A program made the translations under genes and the position numbers. From Candidatus Omnitrophota bacterium (GTDB lineage: Bacteria > Omnitrophota > Gorgyraeia > Gygaellales > Profunditerraquicolaceae), in assembly GCA_043812095.1 (NCBI GenBank), contig JBDRMO010000030.1:1-53790 (forward strand): a stretch of DNA of 53,790 bases, in the 5' to 3' direction. Each line of letters opens with the position of its first letter. Position 1 is the stretch's first letter. Under the pieces are notes generated by a model. That model saw only the letters and a list, made by a program, of their open reading frames with translations. It made no database searches and was not told the origin of the DNA. This document shows, in pieces, positions 7,333 through 53,790 of this stretch.

Positions 7333-7425
7333 AGTTTTCTGGTCCCCTCACTTACTAATAACTTTGACAACGGAAGTTCGGGATCATCCCGAGCAACTTT
7401 AGTGTTATTTCAGGTTGCGTAGGGA

Positions 7426-47672: not shown

Positions 47673-48093
47673 GGATTTGGGAGTTGGAGCAATATTAGCC
47701 TTTGCTGCGATGGGCTCAGCTTTTGGTACCGGGATTGCCGGTATGGCTGCAGTGGGGGCATGGAAGAAGGCGTTTAGCCAAAATAAGGCAGCCTCATTTT
47801 TGATCATTGCCTTTGTCGGTGCGCCCCTGACACAAACGATTTATGGTATGATCATCATGAACAGGATGGCTGAGCTTGCAATCAAAGGCATCTACTTATG
47901 GGGTGTCGGGGTATTAGGCGGCATTGCTATTGGTGCTTCAGCGCTGATGCAGGGAAAGGCCGGAGCAGTTGCCTGCGATGCTATGGGGGAAACCGGTAAA
48001 GGTTTCGGTAATTATATCGTGGTTTTAGGGATCATTGAAACGGTTGCGCTCTTTGTGATGGCTTTTATTATGGGTTTACTTGGTAAATTCTAA
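47644..48093 (+). CDS. atpK: V-type ATPase proteolipid subunit K (4-TM c subunit)
   Basis: 149 aa with two hairpin repeats and IETVALF carboxylate in the last helix. GGAG lies 7 nt upstream. Overlaps atpI by 29 nt. Confidence 0.9.
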   Translation: MPTGTLFQFRDLGVGAILAFAAMGSAFGTGIAGMAAVGAWKKAFSQNKAASFLIIAFVGAPLTQTIYGMIIMNRMAELAIKGIYLWGVGVLGGIAIGASALMQGKAGAVACDAMGETGKGFGNYIVVLGIIETVALFVMAFIMGLLGKF

Positions 48094-48108
48094 TGTTGTT
48101 TTTCCTCT

Positions 48109-48137
48109 TTGACAAAATCGAACTTCTATATTATTAT
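48109..48137 (+). promoter_or_regulatory. candidate promoter for the HTH/LAGLIDADG-like gene
   Basis: TTGACA (48109-48114), 17-nt spacer, TATTAT (48132-48137). GGAGG lies at 48156-48160. Confidence 0.45.
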
Positions 48138-48167
48138 ATATTTATATAATAACCTGGAGGTTCGTAA

Positions 48168-48848
48168 ATGAAAGCAGAGAAGATAAGGGAAGCGAAAGAG
48201 TTAAGAAGGCGTGGCTGGTCTGTTAGGGCTATTGCGCAGCAAATACATTGCTCTAAGAGCTCAGTTAGTATTTGGGTGAGAGATATACCTCTTACCACTC
48301 AACAGATAGAGAGGCTCAAAGTAGCCCAAGATAGAGGAAGGGCAAGGGCCGCAAATCACCCAAATAGTTCAAAATACAGATGGGAAAGAATCCGCCAAGA
48401 GATAATTAATACTACGAAGGCGGAGATTCCCAAAGAATACTCCTTAGAGAACTTAAAATGTATAGGCGCTTCTTTGTATTGGGCTGAAGGTTATAACGCT
48501 TCTATAAATTCATTCGTATTTGCCAATAGCGATAGTGTTATGATAAGATTAATGATGAAGTTCCTTAGAGAAATATGTAGTATTCCTTCAGGTAAATTAC
48601 GAGGTCGAGTTAATATACATCCACATTTAGATATTAAAAAATCTGAAAAATACTGGTCAGAGATTAGCGGGATTCCTTTATCGCAATTTCATAAGCCCCT
48701 TTTATCGATAAGCAAGGCTAGCAAGCAAAAGAGGAAGACGTTGCCACATGGAACTTTTCGGATAGTCATTTCGGATGTTCATTTATGCAGTAGAATCAAG
48801 GGGTGGATTCAGGGGTTGAAAGATTGGGCGATTGGCTCAGTTGGTTAG
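48168..48848 (+). CDS. HTH plus LAGLIDADG-like (homing-endonuclease-like) protein
   Basis: N-terminal helix-turn-helix RRGWSVRAIAQQIHCSKSSVSIWV. A central GASLYWAEGYNA...FVFANSDSVMIRLMMKFL resembles a LAGLIDADG core with Glu. The last 23 nt lie inside tRNA-Val. Confidence 0.4.
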   Translation: MKAEKIREAKELRRRGWSVRAIAQQIHCSKSSVSIWVRDIPLTTQQIERLKVAQDRGRARAANHPNSSKYRWERIRQEIINTTKAEIPKEYSLENLKCIGASLYWAEGYNASINSFVFANSDSVMIRLMMKFLREICSIPSGKLRGRVNIHPHLDIKKSEKYWSEISGIPLSQFHKPLLSISKASKQKRKTLPHGTFRIVISDVHLCSRIKGWIQGLKDWAIGSVG

Positions 48849-48902
48849 AGCGTTGCGCTTACATCGCAAAGGTCACAGGTTCGAATCCTGTATCGCCCAC
48901 CA
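48826..48902 (+). tRNA. tRNA-Val (UAC), CCA encoded
   Basis: Acceptor GGGCGAT/ATCGCCC, anticodon stem TTGCG/CGCAA with loop CTTACAT, T arm ACAGG-TTCGAAT-CCTGT, then ACCA. Confidence 0.9.
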
Positions 48903-48958
48903 TAAATTTTTATTGCAACGCCCAATATTTTAGGGTACAATTTACATCTTATCTTTCT

Positions 48959-49036
48959 GGGCCCGTGGTGTAGTCTGGTTAACATGTCAGATTGTCGATC
49001 TGAAGATCGCGAGTTCAAATCTCGTCGGGCCCGCCA
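48959..49036 (+). tRNA. tRNA-Asp (GUC), CCA encoded
   Basis: Acceptor GGGCCCG/CGGGCCC, anticodon stem TCAGA/TCTGA with loop TTGTCGA, T arm GCGAG-TTCAAAT-CTCGT, then GCCA. Confidence 0.9.
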
Positions 49037-49411
49037 GTCTTCGCTCAGCACTTAACGTGCAGAGCTTCGCCTGGCTTACGCCAAAATATGCATTGCGTAT
49101 ATATTCTCACCAGCAAAAAAGACAAAAGAAAATTTTATGTAGGTTATACTAATAATCTTCAAAGGCGTCTAGTAGATCACAAAAATCCACCGAAAAATTC
49201 TTACACACATAGATACGGCCCTTGGGCATTAGAGACATATAGTGTATTTTCTGAGAGAAGATTAGCGAAAGCATTTGAGGTATATCTCAAGAGTCATTCT
49301 GGCAGAGCCTTTTTGAGGCGGAGACTAGCAGTTGTATCGTAGAAATCCGGCGTAGCCGTCAGAACTTTTTTGTTTATTATAAGGCGCAGCCGGATCGTCG
49401 GGCCCGCCAGT
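49022..49411 (+). mobile_element. about 0.37-kb insertion at the tRNA-Asp 3' end, bounded by 17-bp direct repeats, carrying a GIY-YIG gene
   Basis: TCGTCGGGCCCGCCAGT occurs at 49022-49038 (the 3' end of tRNA-Asp plus GT) and again at 49395-49411. No integrase is present. Confidence 0.6.
49088..49342 (+). CDS. GIY-YIG nuclease-family protein (small, UPF0213-like)
   Basis: 84 aa, VYILTSKKDKRKFYVGYTNNLQRRLVDH, which gives the GIY..YIG and Arg motif spacing. Confidence 0.75.
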   Translation: MHCVYILTSKKDKRKFYVGYTNNLQRRLVDHKNPPKNSYTHRYGPWALETYSVFSERRLAKAFEVYLKSHSGRAFLRRRLAVVS

Positions 49412-49418
49412 TAATCCC

Positions 49419-49447
49419 TTGACGGCTTAATATTTTATTGTTAAAAT
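49419..49447 (+). promoter_or_regulatory. candidate promoter of the lipoprotein/desulfurase/radical-SAM cluster
   Basis: TTGACG (49419-49424), 17-nt spacer, TAAAAT (49442-49447). AAGGAGG precedes ATG 49498. Confidence 0.45.
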
Positions 49448-49497
49448 AATTAATTCGTTAAAATAAACTATTTTATTAAAAGAAAAGGAGGTGCTCT

Positions 49498-50115
49498 ATG
49501 AGCAAGAAGCAGATTTGTCTTCTTTTGGGAGTATTTATGCTGAGCAGTTTGTTCTCGGGCTGTACCTATTTAAAGAATAGGGGTAATGACGCTATGGATA
49601 TGTTTGACACAGGGATTATCCTTACCTCAAAACCAAACTTTGCCCTTTATACAGATCTAGGCATGGTGCTTCCGATGGGCTTTAGCCATATTGATGGAAA
49701 ATTAATAGGAATCGGCAGGAGTAATTTTGGAGTACATGATTTTCGGCTGAATGGATATGGTTATGTAATCGGTGGGAAAATGCAGCGGGGAGTTGATAAT
49801 TACAATCCTGATGATCCTAATGATCCTCCGACCTATCCTGTCGGTATCCCAGCCCTTATGGACGGAACACACATGGCCAGTATTGACCCTGGCAGATATG
49901 AAGAGCGCCCTAAGACAAGATATACTTGCCCAAAGGTAATTCATTTAGGCTGGATAGGTTTTGATTTCGGATGTAAGCTTTGGGATATGCTTGATTTCAT
50001 ATTAGGGTGGACTACGCTTGATATCGGCGAAGATGATGTTGCTGGAGTCCAGGCGCACGCAAGCTCTGAATATTCGATTAAAGAACCGATGGATGACGCA
50101 TCTGTAATGAAGTAG
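49498..50115 (+). CDS. lipoprotein, function unknown
   Basis: Signal peptide with lipobox LFSGC (MSKKQICLLLGVFMLSSLFSGC); 205 aa. Confidence 0.6.
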   Translation: MSKKQICLLLGVFMLSSLFSGCTYLKNRGNDAMDMFDTGIILTSKPNFALYTDLGMVLPMGFSHIDGKLIGIGRSNFGVHDFRLNGYGYVIGGKMQRGVDNYNPDDPNDPPTYPVGIPALMDGTHMASIDPGRYEERPKTRYTCPKVIHLGWIGFDFGCKLWDMLDFILGWTTLDIGEDDVAGVQAHASSEYSIKEPMDDASVMK

Positions 50116-51552: not shown

Positions 51553-53082
51553 ATGGCTAATTTAGGCGTATGTAACAAGTGTAAAAAATCAGTTCCGGTA
51601 AAACATTTTCAGAAGGACGGTAAAGAGTATCTGGAAAAACTCTGTCCTGATTGCGGAACTGTGTCTTCATTGATTTCCAATGATGCCAAGCAGTATAATC
51701 GCAAAAGAGACTTTATGGCTGACCGGCATTATCCTGGATGCCATATGGATTGCCTTAGTAATTGCACTCATAGAGACCCCAACATTATTTTTATCGAGAC
51801 CACCAACCGCTGCAATATGAATTGTCCGATCTGTATTACTAATGTCCCATCAATGGGCTTTCAGTTTGAGCCGCGCCTGGAGTTTTTTGAGCGGATATTC
51901 AGCCATTACGCAAAATTCGAGCGGCCGCCTTCCGTACAACTGTTCGGCGGAGAACCCACGATGAGAGAAGACCTTCTGGATATTATTAAGCTCGCCAAAT
52001 CCTATGGGCTCTCGATACGCCTGGTGACCAACGGATTAAAGCTCTCTGATAAGGCCTACGCAGAGAAGATTATGGCCAGCGGCGCTGCGATATTGATTGC
52101 TTTTGACGGCCTAAAAAGAGAGATGTACCAGAAGTTAAGAAACTTTCCTGAGTCATTAGATATAAAATTAAAGGCGTTAGAGAATCTTACCCATCATAAG
52201 CGCAGGAAGGTTGTGCTGATGACCGTTGTTGATAAAAACATAAATGGCGATGATATGCCGAACTTTCTCGATTACTGTTTAAAGAACCGGCATATCCGTG
52301 GAATATTCCTTATGCCTTTGACTCAGGTATGGTCAGACGAGAGGCTAGAGTATAAACCCGAGAGGACCACGCAAGAGGATGTAGAAAATATCGTCAAGAA
52401 TGCAATCGGAGGCAAGACAGAGTTTGTTCCTTTGGGTTCATGGGAATTTCAGAATATAGCAAAAGTCTTTAAGCAAACCTTGATGCCCTTTACCGGAGTG
52501 CATCCGAATTGCGAAAGCTTCACTTATCTTATCCCGCGCGGGAATAAATATGTTTCCATATCCGATTATTTGAAGTTCGGCTTATTCTCGCTAGTTGCTG
52601 ATCTAAGAGCGATGGATAAAAAGATAGAACCCTATACCTTAAAAGGCGGTATCGGCAAATGGCATAAATTCAAAGTGCAACTGGCGTTAGTAACAATGCT
52701 GTTTAAACATATAGATTTAACTGCTGTGATCGGTAAAAGAGGGTTACCTGCGCTCATCGCATGGATACGTTTTTTTGGGAAACTTCTCTGTGGCCGGAAA
52801 TTTATTGAGGTTCTTAGTGCAGAGACTACCTTAACAGATATCAGAGGGGCATTACAGATTTTATTACTGCCTTTTGAAGATGATGATATCCTGGAGAGTT
52901 CCCGCTTAGAGAAATGCGCTTCCTGTTTTGCCTATATTGACGTAAAGAGCGGTTTGGTGAAATCTATACCTTTTTGTATCTGGGAAAAATATAAAAAACC
53001 GATTATGAAAGAGATTGCCGAAGAATATAATAAAGAGGGCTACACCAAGGGATTATCATCAAAGAAAGCAGCTTGTTCATGA
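51553..53082 (+). CDS. radical SAM protein with N-terminal rubredoxin-like CxxC..CxxC module (Tes/GDGT-MAS-like architecture)
   Basis: 509 aa. Cysteines are C7-x2-C10...C31-x2-C34, then C63-x3-C67-x3-C71. Radical SAM motif is TTNRCNMNCPIC (C87-x3-C91-x2-C94). C-terminal cysteines are CASC...C. Confidence 0.7.
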   Translation: MANLGVCNKCKKSVPVKHFQKDGKEYLEKLCPDCGTVSSLISNDAKQYNRKRDFMADRHYPGCHMDCLSNCTHRDPNIIFIETTNRCNMNCPICITNVPSMGFQFEPRLEFFERIFSHYAKFERPPSVQLFGGEPTMREDLLDIIKLAKSYGLSIRLVTNGLKLSDKAYAEKIMASGAAILIAFDGLKREMYQKLRNFPESLDIKLKALENLTHHKRRKVVLMTVVDKNINGDDMPNFLDYCLKNRHIRGIFLMPLTQVWSDERLEYKPERTTQEDVENIVKNAIGGKTEFVPLGSWEFQNIAKVFKQTLMPFTGVHPNCESFTYLIPRGNKYVSISDYLKFGLFSLVADLRAMDKKIEPYTLKGGIGKWHKFKVQLALVTMLFKHIDLTAVIGKRGLPALIAWIRFFGKLLCGRKFIEVLSAETTLTDIRGALQILLLPFEDDDILESSRLEKCASCFAYIDVKSGLVKSIPFCIWEKYKKPIMKEIAEEYNKEGYTKGLSSKKAACS

Positions 53083-53098
53083 GCAGAGGGGAGAAAAG

Positions 53099-53790
53099 AT
53101 GACAATGAATATGGGGATGTGTGATAGATGCAGAAAAGTCGTGCCTGTCACTCACCACCAAAAAGACAACAAAGAGTATTTACATAAGCATTGCCCTGAT
53201 TGCGGCAAGGTAGAGACACTGGTTTCTAACGACGCAACTAAATACCGAAGCAAAAGAGAGTTTCTCTCTGAGCATAAATATCAGGGATGCCATATGTCAT
53301 GTCTTGACTGTATGCATAAGGTGCCAAACATCGTTTTTGTCGAAACCACCAACCGCTGCAATATGAATTGTCCGATCTGTATTACCAATGGTCCCTCAAT
53401 GGGTTTTCAGTTTGAGCCGCGCCTGGAGTTTTTTGACCGGATATTTAAGTATTGTTCCCAGCTTGAGCATCCTCCTTCAATCCAGTTGTTCGGAGGTGAG
53501 CCCACAGTGCGTGAGGATATGTTTGAGATTATCGAGCTTGCAAAATCCTACGGCCTGATTGTACGTATTGCCACTAATGGCTTGAAAATGGCGGATAAGG
53601 CGTACGCTCAAAAGGTAATCGATAGCGGAGCCACTGTGCTGATCGCCTTCGATGGCTTTAAAAAAGAGATGTATGCCGAGTTACGCGCGCATCCGGAGGC
53701 ACTGGGATTCAAGCTCAAAGCATTAGAAAATCTTTCTGGGCATCAGAATGGAAAAGTAGTGTTGATGTCCGTAATTGATAAGCAGATTAA
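53099..53790 (+). CDS. second, tandem radical SAM paralogue (3' end runs off the window)
   Basis: Not in the track because no stop lies in the window. ATG 53099 follows GAGGGGAG. Product reads MTMNMGMCDRCRKV...CPDCG...TTNRCNMNCPICITN...LFGGEPTVRED, collinear with the upstream paralogue. Confidence 0.8.
   Translation, partial: MTMNMGMCDRCRKVVPVTHHQKDNKEYLHKHCPDCGKVETLVSNDATKYRSKREFLSEHKYQGCHMSCLDCMHKVPNIVFVETTNRCNMNCPICITNGPSMGFQFEPRLEFFDRIFKYCSQLEHPPSIQLFGGEPTVREDMFEIIELAKSYGLIVRIATNGLKMADKAYAQKVIDSGATVLIAFDGFKKEMYAELRAHPEALGFKLKALENLSGHQNGKVVLMSVIDKQI

Follow-up and report, generated by a model that had tools for sequence, protein, structure and literature searches.

A candidate minimal mobile cassette: a small GIY-YIG nuclease gene with hairpin ends at the 3′ end of tRNA-Asp in an Omnitrophota bacterium

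The window analyzed here, a stretch of 53,790 nucleotides (contig JBDRMO010000030.1) from a Candidatus Omnitrophota bacterium, contains a gene for a small GIY-YIG nuclease that lies directly behind the gene for tRNA-Asp and is bracketed by two copies of the 3′ end of this tRNA. On balance, and with slightly more confidence than doubt, we read positions 49037-49394 as a discrete cassette that was placed precisely at the tRNA-Asp 3′ end and that stems from a widespread family of minimal selfish elements, in which a small Slx1/Ssn-like nuclease is the sole protein, hairpins serve as cis sites and tRNA 3′ ends are targeted. At the level of sequence, comparison with related loci reveals a bounded unit with precise junctions, which exists in empty, filled, deleted and open reading frame (ORF)-less states, which carries a horizontal signal and which shows selection on both nuclease and hairpin. 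By analogy with described enzymes we infer that the cassette's own nuclease acts on its ends and cuts tRNA genes.

The repeat as a scar of insertion

A first-pass annotation of the window had reported a 17-bp direct repeat on both sides of the GIY-YIG gene and had interpreted it as the 3′ end of tRNA-Asp plus GT. The repeat, TCGTCGGGCCCGCCAGT, is an exact match at 49022-49038 and 49395-49411 of the forward strand, and no further match was found in the window, even allowing 2 mismatches (0.01 expected from shuffles), or anywhere else in the 85-contig, 917-kb assembly. Its assignment to the tRNA holds for 15 nt, which correspond to tRNA positions 62-76. The GT of the first copy, in contrast, belongs to the cassette, which starts with GTCTTCG in four homologous cassettes as well; these initial bases coincide by chance with the GT of the ancestral flank GTTAAT behind the second copy. 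Between the 17-bp copies lie 356 nt with a single ORF, the 84-residue GIY-YIG protein, as had been described. The tRNA-Asp gene in front of it is the sole tRNA-Asp detected in the assembly, and an Rfam search of positions 48000-50000 returned the two tRNAs of a Val-Asp pair alone.

An empty tRNA-Asp site, which the first-pass annotation had proposed to look for in relatives, is present in a genome of the same family (G010). There, the insert-free tRNA-Asp ends in GCCA and continues directly with GTTAAT (...TCGTCGGGCCCGCCA/GTTAATAGAG...TTGAC), i.e., the empty site consists of the tRNA-Asp 3′ end followed by GTTAATCCC. Since G010 joins the tRNA end directly to GTTAAT, the second repeat copy together with its flank represents the ancestral junction. 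The insertion left the tRNA intact at the left and a spare copy of tRNA positions 61/62-76 at the right. In 14 other relatives the Val-Asp tRNA pair is found with neither the duplication nor a GIY-YIG gene, and the pair as such is kept in 17 relatives across the order.

The second copy had also been placed next to the -35 box of downstream radical-SAM genes, and the promoter-like TTGACG-17-TAAAAT indeed begins 7 nt past it. This site belongs to the ancestral flank and not to the cassette, and the same flank trails a deleted cassette in the same-genus assembly G001, which is described below. We conclude that the 17-bp repeat is an insertion scar and neither an integrase att site nor a regulatory element of the radical-SAM genes. 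From the earlier interpretation as attL/attR signature it can be retained that the tRNA-Asp 3′ end was the site of an insertion, of which the duplication is the mark; an origin from an integrase is not supported, since the repeat always spans tRNA positions 61-76, follows the host's allele and is accompanied by a recombinase in none of the loci examined.

Anatomy of the cassette

The cassette comprises 358 bp (Table 1). DNA folding predicts a left hairpin of 9 bp at 49043-49065 with the arms GCTCAGCAC and GTGCAGAGC and one A.A mismatch. Moreover, CTGGC (49071-49075) would be able to pair with GCCAG (49033-49037), which spans the GCCA end of the tRNA, to form a 5-bp outer helix; this helix is invariant among the cassettes and is therefore evidence neither way. 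At the right, reading of the sequence shows that the cassette terminates with ...GCCGGA touching the second repeat copy. Long terminal inverted repeats were not found in the window cassette, and an imperfect 9-nt pair, GGCTTACGCC/GGCGTAGCC, closely flanks the nuclease ORF.

The 51 nt from tRNA-Asp to the nuclease ATG contain neither a promoter-like site nor a Shine-Dalgarno sequence, and the consensus scan returned no terminator between tRNA-Asp and the ORF or past the ORF. The promoter-like site ahead of tRNA-Asp (48913-48941) is likely the source of a transcript that spans the nuclease gene, too. The cassette has GIY-YIG as its one ORF and no recognized transposase of the DDE, HUH or serine/tyrosine type. 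In agreement with the first-pass annotation, an integrase or recombinase was found neither in the cassette nor within several kb. Matches to the cassette ends elsewhere in the genome did not exceed chance 10-14-mers.

Filled, deleted and ORF-less sites in relatives

The nearest homologues of the nuclease, with 63-76% identity, were traced to their contigs, resulting in six further Omnitrophota tRNA-Asp loci with a cassette between unrelated flanks (L072, L071, L076, L156, L173 with L174 and L175, and L177). Together with the empty site in G010 and the deleted copy in G001, these loci bear out the earlier suggestion of a minimal nuclease-only cassette. In all six, the left end abuts the CCA of the tRNA, with GTCTTCG in L072, L071, L076 and L156 and TCAG(G/T)CTTCG in L173 and L177. 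A left hairpin of 7-9 bp is visible in the former four, where it is followed by CT(T/C)CGCC TG(G/A)C. The right end reads (A)TCCGGCG(A/T)AGCC ... AAGGCG(A/C)AGC(C/T)GGA in the window and in the same four loci, and ...GCCGTG in L173 and L177. Behind it stands the tRNA copy, which reaches from the T-loop/T-stem boundary to CCA, i.e., over positions 61-76, the window copy lacking the first C. Accordingly, the duplication covers positions 61-76 in six of the seven complete tRNA-Asp cassettes (16 nt; 14 nt exact in L071) and 62-76 (15 nt) in the window, and its length at other tRNAs is 11-18 nt. Complete cassettes are compact, with about 280-360 bp from repeat to repeat, and integrase or island genes were absent from the cassettes and loci of the relatives examined. 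The spare copy matches the host's own tRNA-Asp allele: it is CTCGTCGGGCCCGCCA in hosts with a GGGCCCG acceptor stem (window, L072, L156) and CCCGTCGTCCCCGC(CA) where the acceptor stem is GGGGACG (L071, L076, L173).

Two altered versions of the site are present in the same-genus assembly G001. In C47, another tRNA-Asp allele (GGGGCCG...CCCGTCGGCCCCGCCA; allele B, that of the window being allele A) is followed by a left end that is identical to the one of the window in 76 of 77 positions, a stretch that reaches 26 nt into the ORF. From there, the sequence passes directly to TGACGGCTT..., which corresponds to window position 49420 onward, an internal deletion of about 306 bp. C47 is an internally deleted copy of the window cassette beside another tRNA-Asp allele. 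In C19, a tRNA-Asp identical to that of the window minus CCA is followed by an 85-nt ORF-less hairpin insert and then by 22 nt that match the 3′ end of the C47 allele exactly. The left arm of this insert is similar to the left end of a cassette in G018, which has a GIY-YIG gene and stands behind tRNA-Gln. A check for co-conversion gave a window-like cassette beside allele B for C47 and an allele-A tRNA with an allele-B 3′ end for C19, for which the resident tRNA seems to have been replaced with its old 3′ end left behind. An alternative interpretation of the second copy in C19 as decayed by two mismatches was ruled out, as it is an exact 22-nt copy of the other tRNA-Asp allele. G001 has 7% contamination, and the two versions of its tRNA-Asp/lipoprotein locus (L070:1-330 for C47, L023:1640-1880 for C19) probably derive from a mixture of two populations.

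Further arrangements were observed at these loci. Behind tRNA-Asp in L174:1-600 and L173, tandem cassettes are separated by tRNA-Asp 3′-end fragments, with three occurrences of CCCGTCGTCCCCGCCA in about 0.9 kb. L173 has another GIY-YIG gene, which is located upstream of the tRNA. Compared to L072, L071 has an extra 148-nt hairpin-rich spacer ahead of tRNA-Asp (2222-2371) and about 110 nt more past the spare tRNA copy (2830-2940). The latter includes a hairpin of the GGCTTACGCTTATGGAGCGAAGCGACATAAGT type, which also flanks GIY-YIG genes bounded by terminal inverted repeats (TIRs) in other relatives.

The nuclease

The protein matches the GIY-YIG family PF01541 over residues 1-73 of 84 with 62.1 bits (cutoff 22.6; E 6e-17), and scores 24.7 bits for the group I intron endonuclease family TIGR01453 (cutoff 56). 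Y5 and Y17, the catalytic tyrosines of GIY and YIG, as well as R27 and the metal-binding E64 are invariant across 26 homologues with 54-76% identity, which also keep a C-terminal YLKSHSGRAFL motif. Among five tRNA-Asp cassettes the ratio of nonsynonymous to synonymous substitution rates (dN/dS) is 0.08-0.19, suggesting strong purifying selection on the nuclease. An AlphaFold2 model (pLDDT 91.7) has the GIY-YIG fold, a beta-sheet of three strands with helices at its sides, and its top fold matches in the PDB are all GIY-YIG proteins, namely UPF0213 BH0048, At-HIGLE and Slx1, and at lower rank the UvrC N-terminal domain and I-TevI. The protein consists of the catalytic domain alone, a second or DNA-binding domain being absent.

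Genomes of the same genus contain no close homologue of the nuclease, the best hit having 36-39% identity. A search for other GIY-YIG genes beside tRNA 3′-end duplications in the same genome, as had been proposed, had a negative outcome. The genome's one other GIY-YIG gene (G000:C27:1915-2133, within L002, G000:C27:415-3633) is 38% identical, lies between trpC (IGPS) and trpF (PRAI) and is flanked by the 15-nt inverted repeats CCTCCGCACCAATTG and CAATTGGTGCGGGGG with TAAA on each side. The trpC-trpF intergenic site is occupied in G023 (L056), too. This layout is transposon-like and distinct from the tRNA type.

Selection on the hairpin and horizontal signal

In an alignment of five cassettes, six of the nine stem pairs of the left hairpin have changed on both sides, and 91% of the cells pair. 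Pairing as good as this was reached in 0/500 shuffles, and registers slid by 1-3 columns drop to 21-46% paired. These compensatory changes point to selection on the left hairpin. Furthermore, the similarity of the cassettes departs from that of the hosts. L072 and L071 differ in most hairpin stem pairs and in their tRNA-Asp alleles, although their hosts share 97% identity in V-ATPase K. The hosts of the window and L072 are only 71% identical, yet the hairpin stem arms are the same (one loop base differs) and the nucleases are 75% identical. These relationships conflict with host descent and suggest horizontal movement of the cassettes.

A wider family of GIY-YIG genes at tRNA and tmRNA genes

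A survey of 41 genomes of the order yielded 51 small GIY-YIG genes, which are distributed over 24 of these genomes, the tRNA counts being derived from ARAGORN run sequence by sequence. Almost half of these genes (24/51) adjoin a tRNA or tmRNA, all on the same strand, and 15 are bracketed by a partial tRNA copy. Three layouts can be distinguished. In the first, the window type, the gene stands behind an intact tRNA with a 3′-end copy downstream. In the second, it stands ahead of an intact tRNA with a copy of the 5′ part upstream, and this copy is broken by a hairpin. In the third, which includes the trpC/trpF gene, it is located away from tRNAs and has 12-16-nt TIRs and 3-6-nt duplications. The layouts cluster on the protein tree with 24 changes compared to 48 in shuffles (0/200 as low), a clustering to which kin sharing labels and the selection of a part of the set by similarity may contribute.

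Regarding the second layout, the 20-nt palindrome CCTGCCTGCCGGCAGGCAGG is identical in L010, L014, L015, L044 and L047, where it interrupts the upstream partial tRNA copies at D-loop position 22/23 of Arg-TCT, Arg-CCT, Asn and one unidentified tRNA in different genera. L004 (G020:C170:419-2612) has three GIY-YIG cassettes inside 1.3 kb. Two stand in tandem ahead of tRNA-Met, each after a 24-25-nt copy of the tRNA-Met 5′ end; the third stands behind tRNA-Asp with a 15-nt 3′-end copy and 19-nt inverted ends (TAAACTTCGTTAGGGCTCG and CGAGCCCTAGCGAAGTTTA).

The clade of the window protein comprises 82 loci from many phyla, its hosts including Omnitrophota, Planctomycetota, Verrucomicrobiota, Nitrospirota, Peregrinibacteria, Alphaproteobacteria, Desulfobacterota and others. 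In 65/82 loci, a tRNA or tmRNA of the same orientation is located just upstream, and in 60 of these 65 the motif CT[TA]CG starts 2, 4 or 5 nt past the tRNA/tmRNA 3′ end, compared to 4.8% of random windows. Downstream of the ORF, 10 nt or more of the tRNA 3′ end are repeated in 16/63 clade loci versus 4/451 mismatched controls. Many clade members have an inverted counterpart to the left end (..CGAAG..TGG), which pairs with a segment containing the CCA of the tRNA. A pattern scan for phage carriers returned no relative in IMG/VR.

Features and neighborhood in the window

The coordinates of the features at the tRNA-Asp locus are collected in Table 1.

Table 1. Features at the tRNA-Asp locus of the window.
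Feature	Position	Strand	Source
tRNA-Val(TAC), first gene of the Val-Asp tRNA pair	48826..48902	+	ARAGORN, Rfam
Promoter-like TTGCAA-17-TACAAT ahead of tRNA-Asp	48913..48941	+	consensus scan
tRNA-Asp(GTC), intact, CCA encoded	48959..49036	+	ARAGORN, Rfam
Repeat copy 1: tRNA positions 62-76 (49022-49036) plus GT	49022..49038	+	repeat search, cassette comparison
Cassette left end: GTCTTCG, hairpin, CTTCGCC, TGGCTT	49037..49087	+	DNA fold, five-cassette alignment
GIY-YIG nuclease gene, 84 aa, single-domain, intact	49088..49342	+	Pfam
Cassette right end: inverted repeat TCCGGC (49346-49351)/GCCGGA (49389-49394) around two GGCG(T/C)AGCC motifs	49343..49394	+	
Repeat copy 2: displaced tRNA-Asp 3′ end, positions 62-76 (49395-49409), plus GT of the flank GTTAAT	49395..49411	+	
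Promoter-like TTGACG-17-TAAAAT of the downstream lipoprotein/aminotransferase/radical-SAM genes	49419..49447	+	consensus scan

The cassette and its tRNA are preceded by genes for V-ATPase I and K, a 226-residue helix-turn-helix (HTH) protein and tRNA-Val(TAC), and are followed by genes for a lipoprotein, a class-V aminotransferase and two radical-SAM proteins. The ORF of the 226-residue protein (48168-48848, +) lies directly 5′ of tRNA-Val, with which it overlaps by 23 nt. It has an N-terminal HTH_23 and weak matches to the HTH of IS630/IS21 transposases, Pfam being otherwise silent, and an LYWAEGY stretch resembles LAGLIDADG by eye. This ORF is kept in G001; L072 is without it, and V-ATPase K stands there directly before the tRNAs. 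The radical-SAM proteins are paralogues encoded side by side (51553-53082 and 53015-53788, +), downstream of the aminotransferase and the lipoprotein, and have an N-terminal HMPTM-type zinc ribbon. At another position of the window, tRNA-Val(GAC) (7340-7425, -) has CTACG at +3 and two small hairpins (GCAAC..GTTGC and TCGGGATGATCCCGA), after which an apparent threonyl-tRNA synthetase gene follows; a copy of the tRNA end is absent. This stretch may be an ORF-less hairpin module or a mere leader.

Relation to described systems

A literature search for GIY-YIG cassettes that target tRNA ends found no description; it returned only papers on fungal mitochondria, on SegB and on Ssn. The nearest described system is the Ssn family, and the nearest functional analogue is SegB. 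Ssn proteins are site-specific nucleases for single-stranded DNA (ssDNA), represented by SsnA of Neisseria meningitidis (CDD cd10448; Chenal et al., 2025, PMC11893778). SsnA is a single-domain GIY-YIG protein of about 94 residues, which binds to a flanking hairpin exclusively in ssDNA and places its cut 3 nt before the (C)GTC in front of this hairpin (PMC11893778). The authors remarked on an insertion sequence (IS)-like repeat-gene-repeat layout, and tRNA is mentioned nowhere in their paper (PMC11893778). Similar to the window, Ssn proteins are single-domain GIY-YIG proteins of about 85-95 residues with Y6, Y17 and E64 of SsnA corresponding to Y5, Y17 and E64; hairpin-forming repeats lie on both sides of the gene, and GTC stands just 5′ of the hairpin. 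They differ in that genomes rich in the Ssn-associated repeat (SRM) hold hundreds of copies, whereas the window genome is without solo copies of the cassette ends. Moreover, the description of Ssn does not include a precise insertion at tRNA 3′ ends that is accompanied by a copy of tRNA positions 61-76 (PMC11893778).

SegB is a free-standing GIY-YIG homing endonuclease in the tRNA cluster of phage T4, which, according to the available portion of the report, cuts the tRNA region of a SegB-less relative and is preferentially co-inherited with flanking tRNA DNA (PMC2330249). In this portion a GIY-YIG gene amid tRNA genes is described as in the window, whereas neither hairpin ends nor a partial tRNA duplication is (PMC2330249). 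The replaced tRNA allele in G001:C19, with allele A beside the 3′ leftover of allele B, resembles the co-conversion reported there. SegB differs from the window in its host, a phage compared to bacterial chromosomes. Seg and I-TevI enzymes have two to three times the length and a DNA-binding domain apart from the catalytic one, whereas the window protein is a bare catalytic domain of 84 residues. Like the window, they occupy sites that are filled or empty among relatives and uninterrupted where the gene is absent.

The best structural and sequence matches to the predicted fold are Slx1, At-HIGLE and UPF0213 (YhbQ-like) proteins (1zg2, 7wme, 4xm5, 7cq2). As far as the titles of the structure entries indicate, these proteins act on branched or flapped DNA and not on sequence alone. 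Recognition of a hairpin and of a tRNA-like fold would fit, since the nearest folds are structure-specific nucleases. Unlike the window protein, they are repair or resolution enzymes with partner domains or subunits, and to our knowledge they do not occur in bounded cassettes or beside tRNA genes.

Integrase-borne islands and prophages share with the window the insertion in the 3′ part of a tRNA gene, the intact tRNA and the presence of the tRNA 3′ end as a direct repeat on either border. However, they are several kb or more in size compared to 0.36 kb and depend on an integrase, which is absent here; in addition, the repeat of the window runs from the T-loop/T-stem boundary to CCA and follows the host allele. 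IS200/IS605 and REP/RAYT elements are also very small, have subterminal hairpins in place of long TIRs and ORF-less hairpin derivatives (here the insert of G001:C19), and cleavage of one strand beside a hairpin is expected for both. IS200/IS605 elements use an HUH Y1 transposase and not a hydrolytic GIY-YIG nuclease, and they show neither target duplication nor targeting of tRNA ends. Insertion sequences in general resemble the window in their near-constant target duplication and differ from it in having several copies per genome and a transposase.

Proposed mechanism

In the mechanism that we propose, the tRNA promoter would drive the nuclease gene, and the nuclease would bind the end hairpins on single-stranded or extruded DNA. 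It would then nick the DNA a few bases before the 5′ end of the GTC/CTTCG motif, within the terminal bases of the tRNA gene; a cut in the last bases of tRNA-Asp is expected if the spacing of SsnA, 3 nt upstream of (C)GTC, is applied here. Host repair or replication would copy the cassette into the broken tRNA gene, with the 16-nt tRNA segment serving as downstream homology or overlap, so that one whole tRNA always survives. The spare copy could be formed by staggered cuts between positions 60 and 61 and after position 76 followed by fill-in, which would explain why both copies have the host allele. Alternatively, break-induced copying from a donor with tRNA positions 61-76 as short downstream homology would account for the tRNA replacement in G001:C19. 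Neither target duplication alone nor homing with co-conversion alone covers both G001 versions, each failing for one of them. A role of the hairpin in the tRNA-mRNA transcript is conceivable, too.

Weighing the explanations

Several observations weigh against a self-mobilizing cassette with an Ssn-like nuclease. The SRM consensus HGTCWYN(0-2)YYVSBRHN(0-5)WNVSBRGN(0-2)RNCYNB has no match at the cassette and is matched in 0/82 related loci (≤350 nt), the cassette fitting only its first six bases (AGTCTT). The compensatory changes do not separate a DNA hairpin from an RNA hairpin in a tRNA-mRNA transcript. Between distant hosts the divergence of cassette and host is alike (75% vs. 71%), and part of the cassette distribution could be vertical. 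The tRNA duplication is not obligatory, since it is recognizable in only about a quarter of the clade members. The cassette is single-copy in its genome with unique ends, and recent multiplication is not seen there. Finally, GIY-YIG enzymes are hydrolases that cannot join DNA, and a host pathway must therefore be assumed.

The last point is met by a cassette that is mobile and passive, which we regard as unlikely and still as the strongest competitor. A recombinase acting in trans (a tRNA-specific tyrosine integrase, XerCD or a transposase) would use the 15-16-bp tRNA repeat as att core, and the nuclease would be cargo, e.g., an Ssn-like limiter of transforming ssDNA or a defense nuclease. The tRNA 3′-end direct repeat does resemble integrase-made attL/attR, but it tracks the host allele and is not a constant att borne by the element. 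Ligation would be beyond the GIY-YIG enzyme; however, no integrase is found near the window locus, and the phyla share no adjoining recombinase, the nuclease being the sole gene common to all cassettes. The host-level role of SsnA in transformation of Neisseria supports a cargo function, whereas the layout and the target type track the nuclease tree.

That the gene is a domesticated, vertically inherited small nuclease, co-transcribed with the tRNAs and immobile now, is improbable. The hairpins would then be signals for RNA processing or stability and the tRNA copy a relic of an old rearrangement. The strong purifying selection, the constant position on the tRNA strand, the absence of an own promoter and Shine-Dalgarno sequence and the single copy in the genome are all consistent with it. 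Its divergence, which is broadly like that of host proteins between distant hosts, would fit as well, but the hairpin similarity is at odds with host relatedness. Moreover, most relatives are without the gene and have a clean empty site, and both same-genus versions differ from the window, one being ORF-less and the other internally deleted. Without a function, a 16-nt relic would lose its agreement with the tRNA allele of each host. The second possibility raised by the first-pass annotation, a leftover of a larger genomic island at the tRNA with integrase and cargo deleted, might account for a tRNA 3′-end duplicate without an integrase, but it is most improbable given that complete cassettes elsewhere are equally compact (about 280-360 bp), have conserved ends right against the repeats and contain an integrase or island genes in no case.

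Implications

We continue to favor a selfish cassette that would be moved with the help of its own nuclease. More speculatively, and at a level of confidence that we would call tentative, these cassettes would be a class of autonomous mobile DNA in their own right and, with about 0.36 kb, possibly the smallest one known. Together with the end hairpins, the nuclease would recognize tRNA and tmRNA genes of any kind by their folded 3′ end on ssDNA and cut this end, the host would copy the element in and a whole tRNA would be regenerated. Such a hybrid of tRNA-guided homing and transposition would explain the natural biology of Ssn-like nucleases.

If this holds true, a nuclease of 84 residues and two hairpins would suffice for a site-specific mobile element in tRNA and tmRNA genes of many bacterial phyla, which is not lethal to its host. 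Small hairpin-associated GIY-YIG nucleases of the Ssn-like type would thereby gain a natural role, and many annotations as "GIY-YIG nuclease family protein" beside tRNAs would be explained. Very small structure- or hairpin-directed nucleases of this kind might also be of use as tools. For streamlined uncultured bacteria, the cassettes would represent an added mechanism of tRNA-gene turnover and allele replacement.

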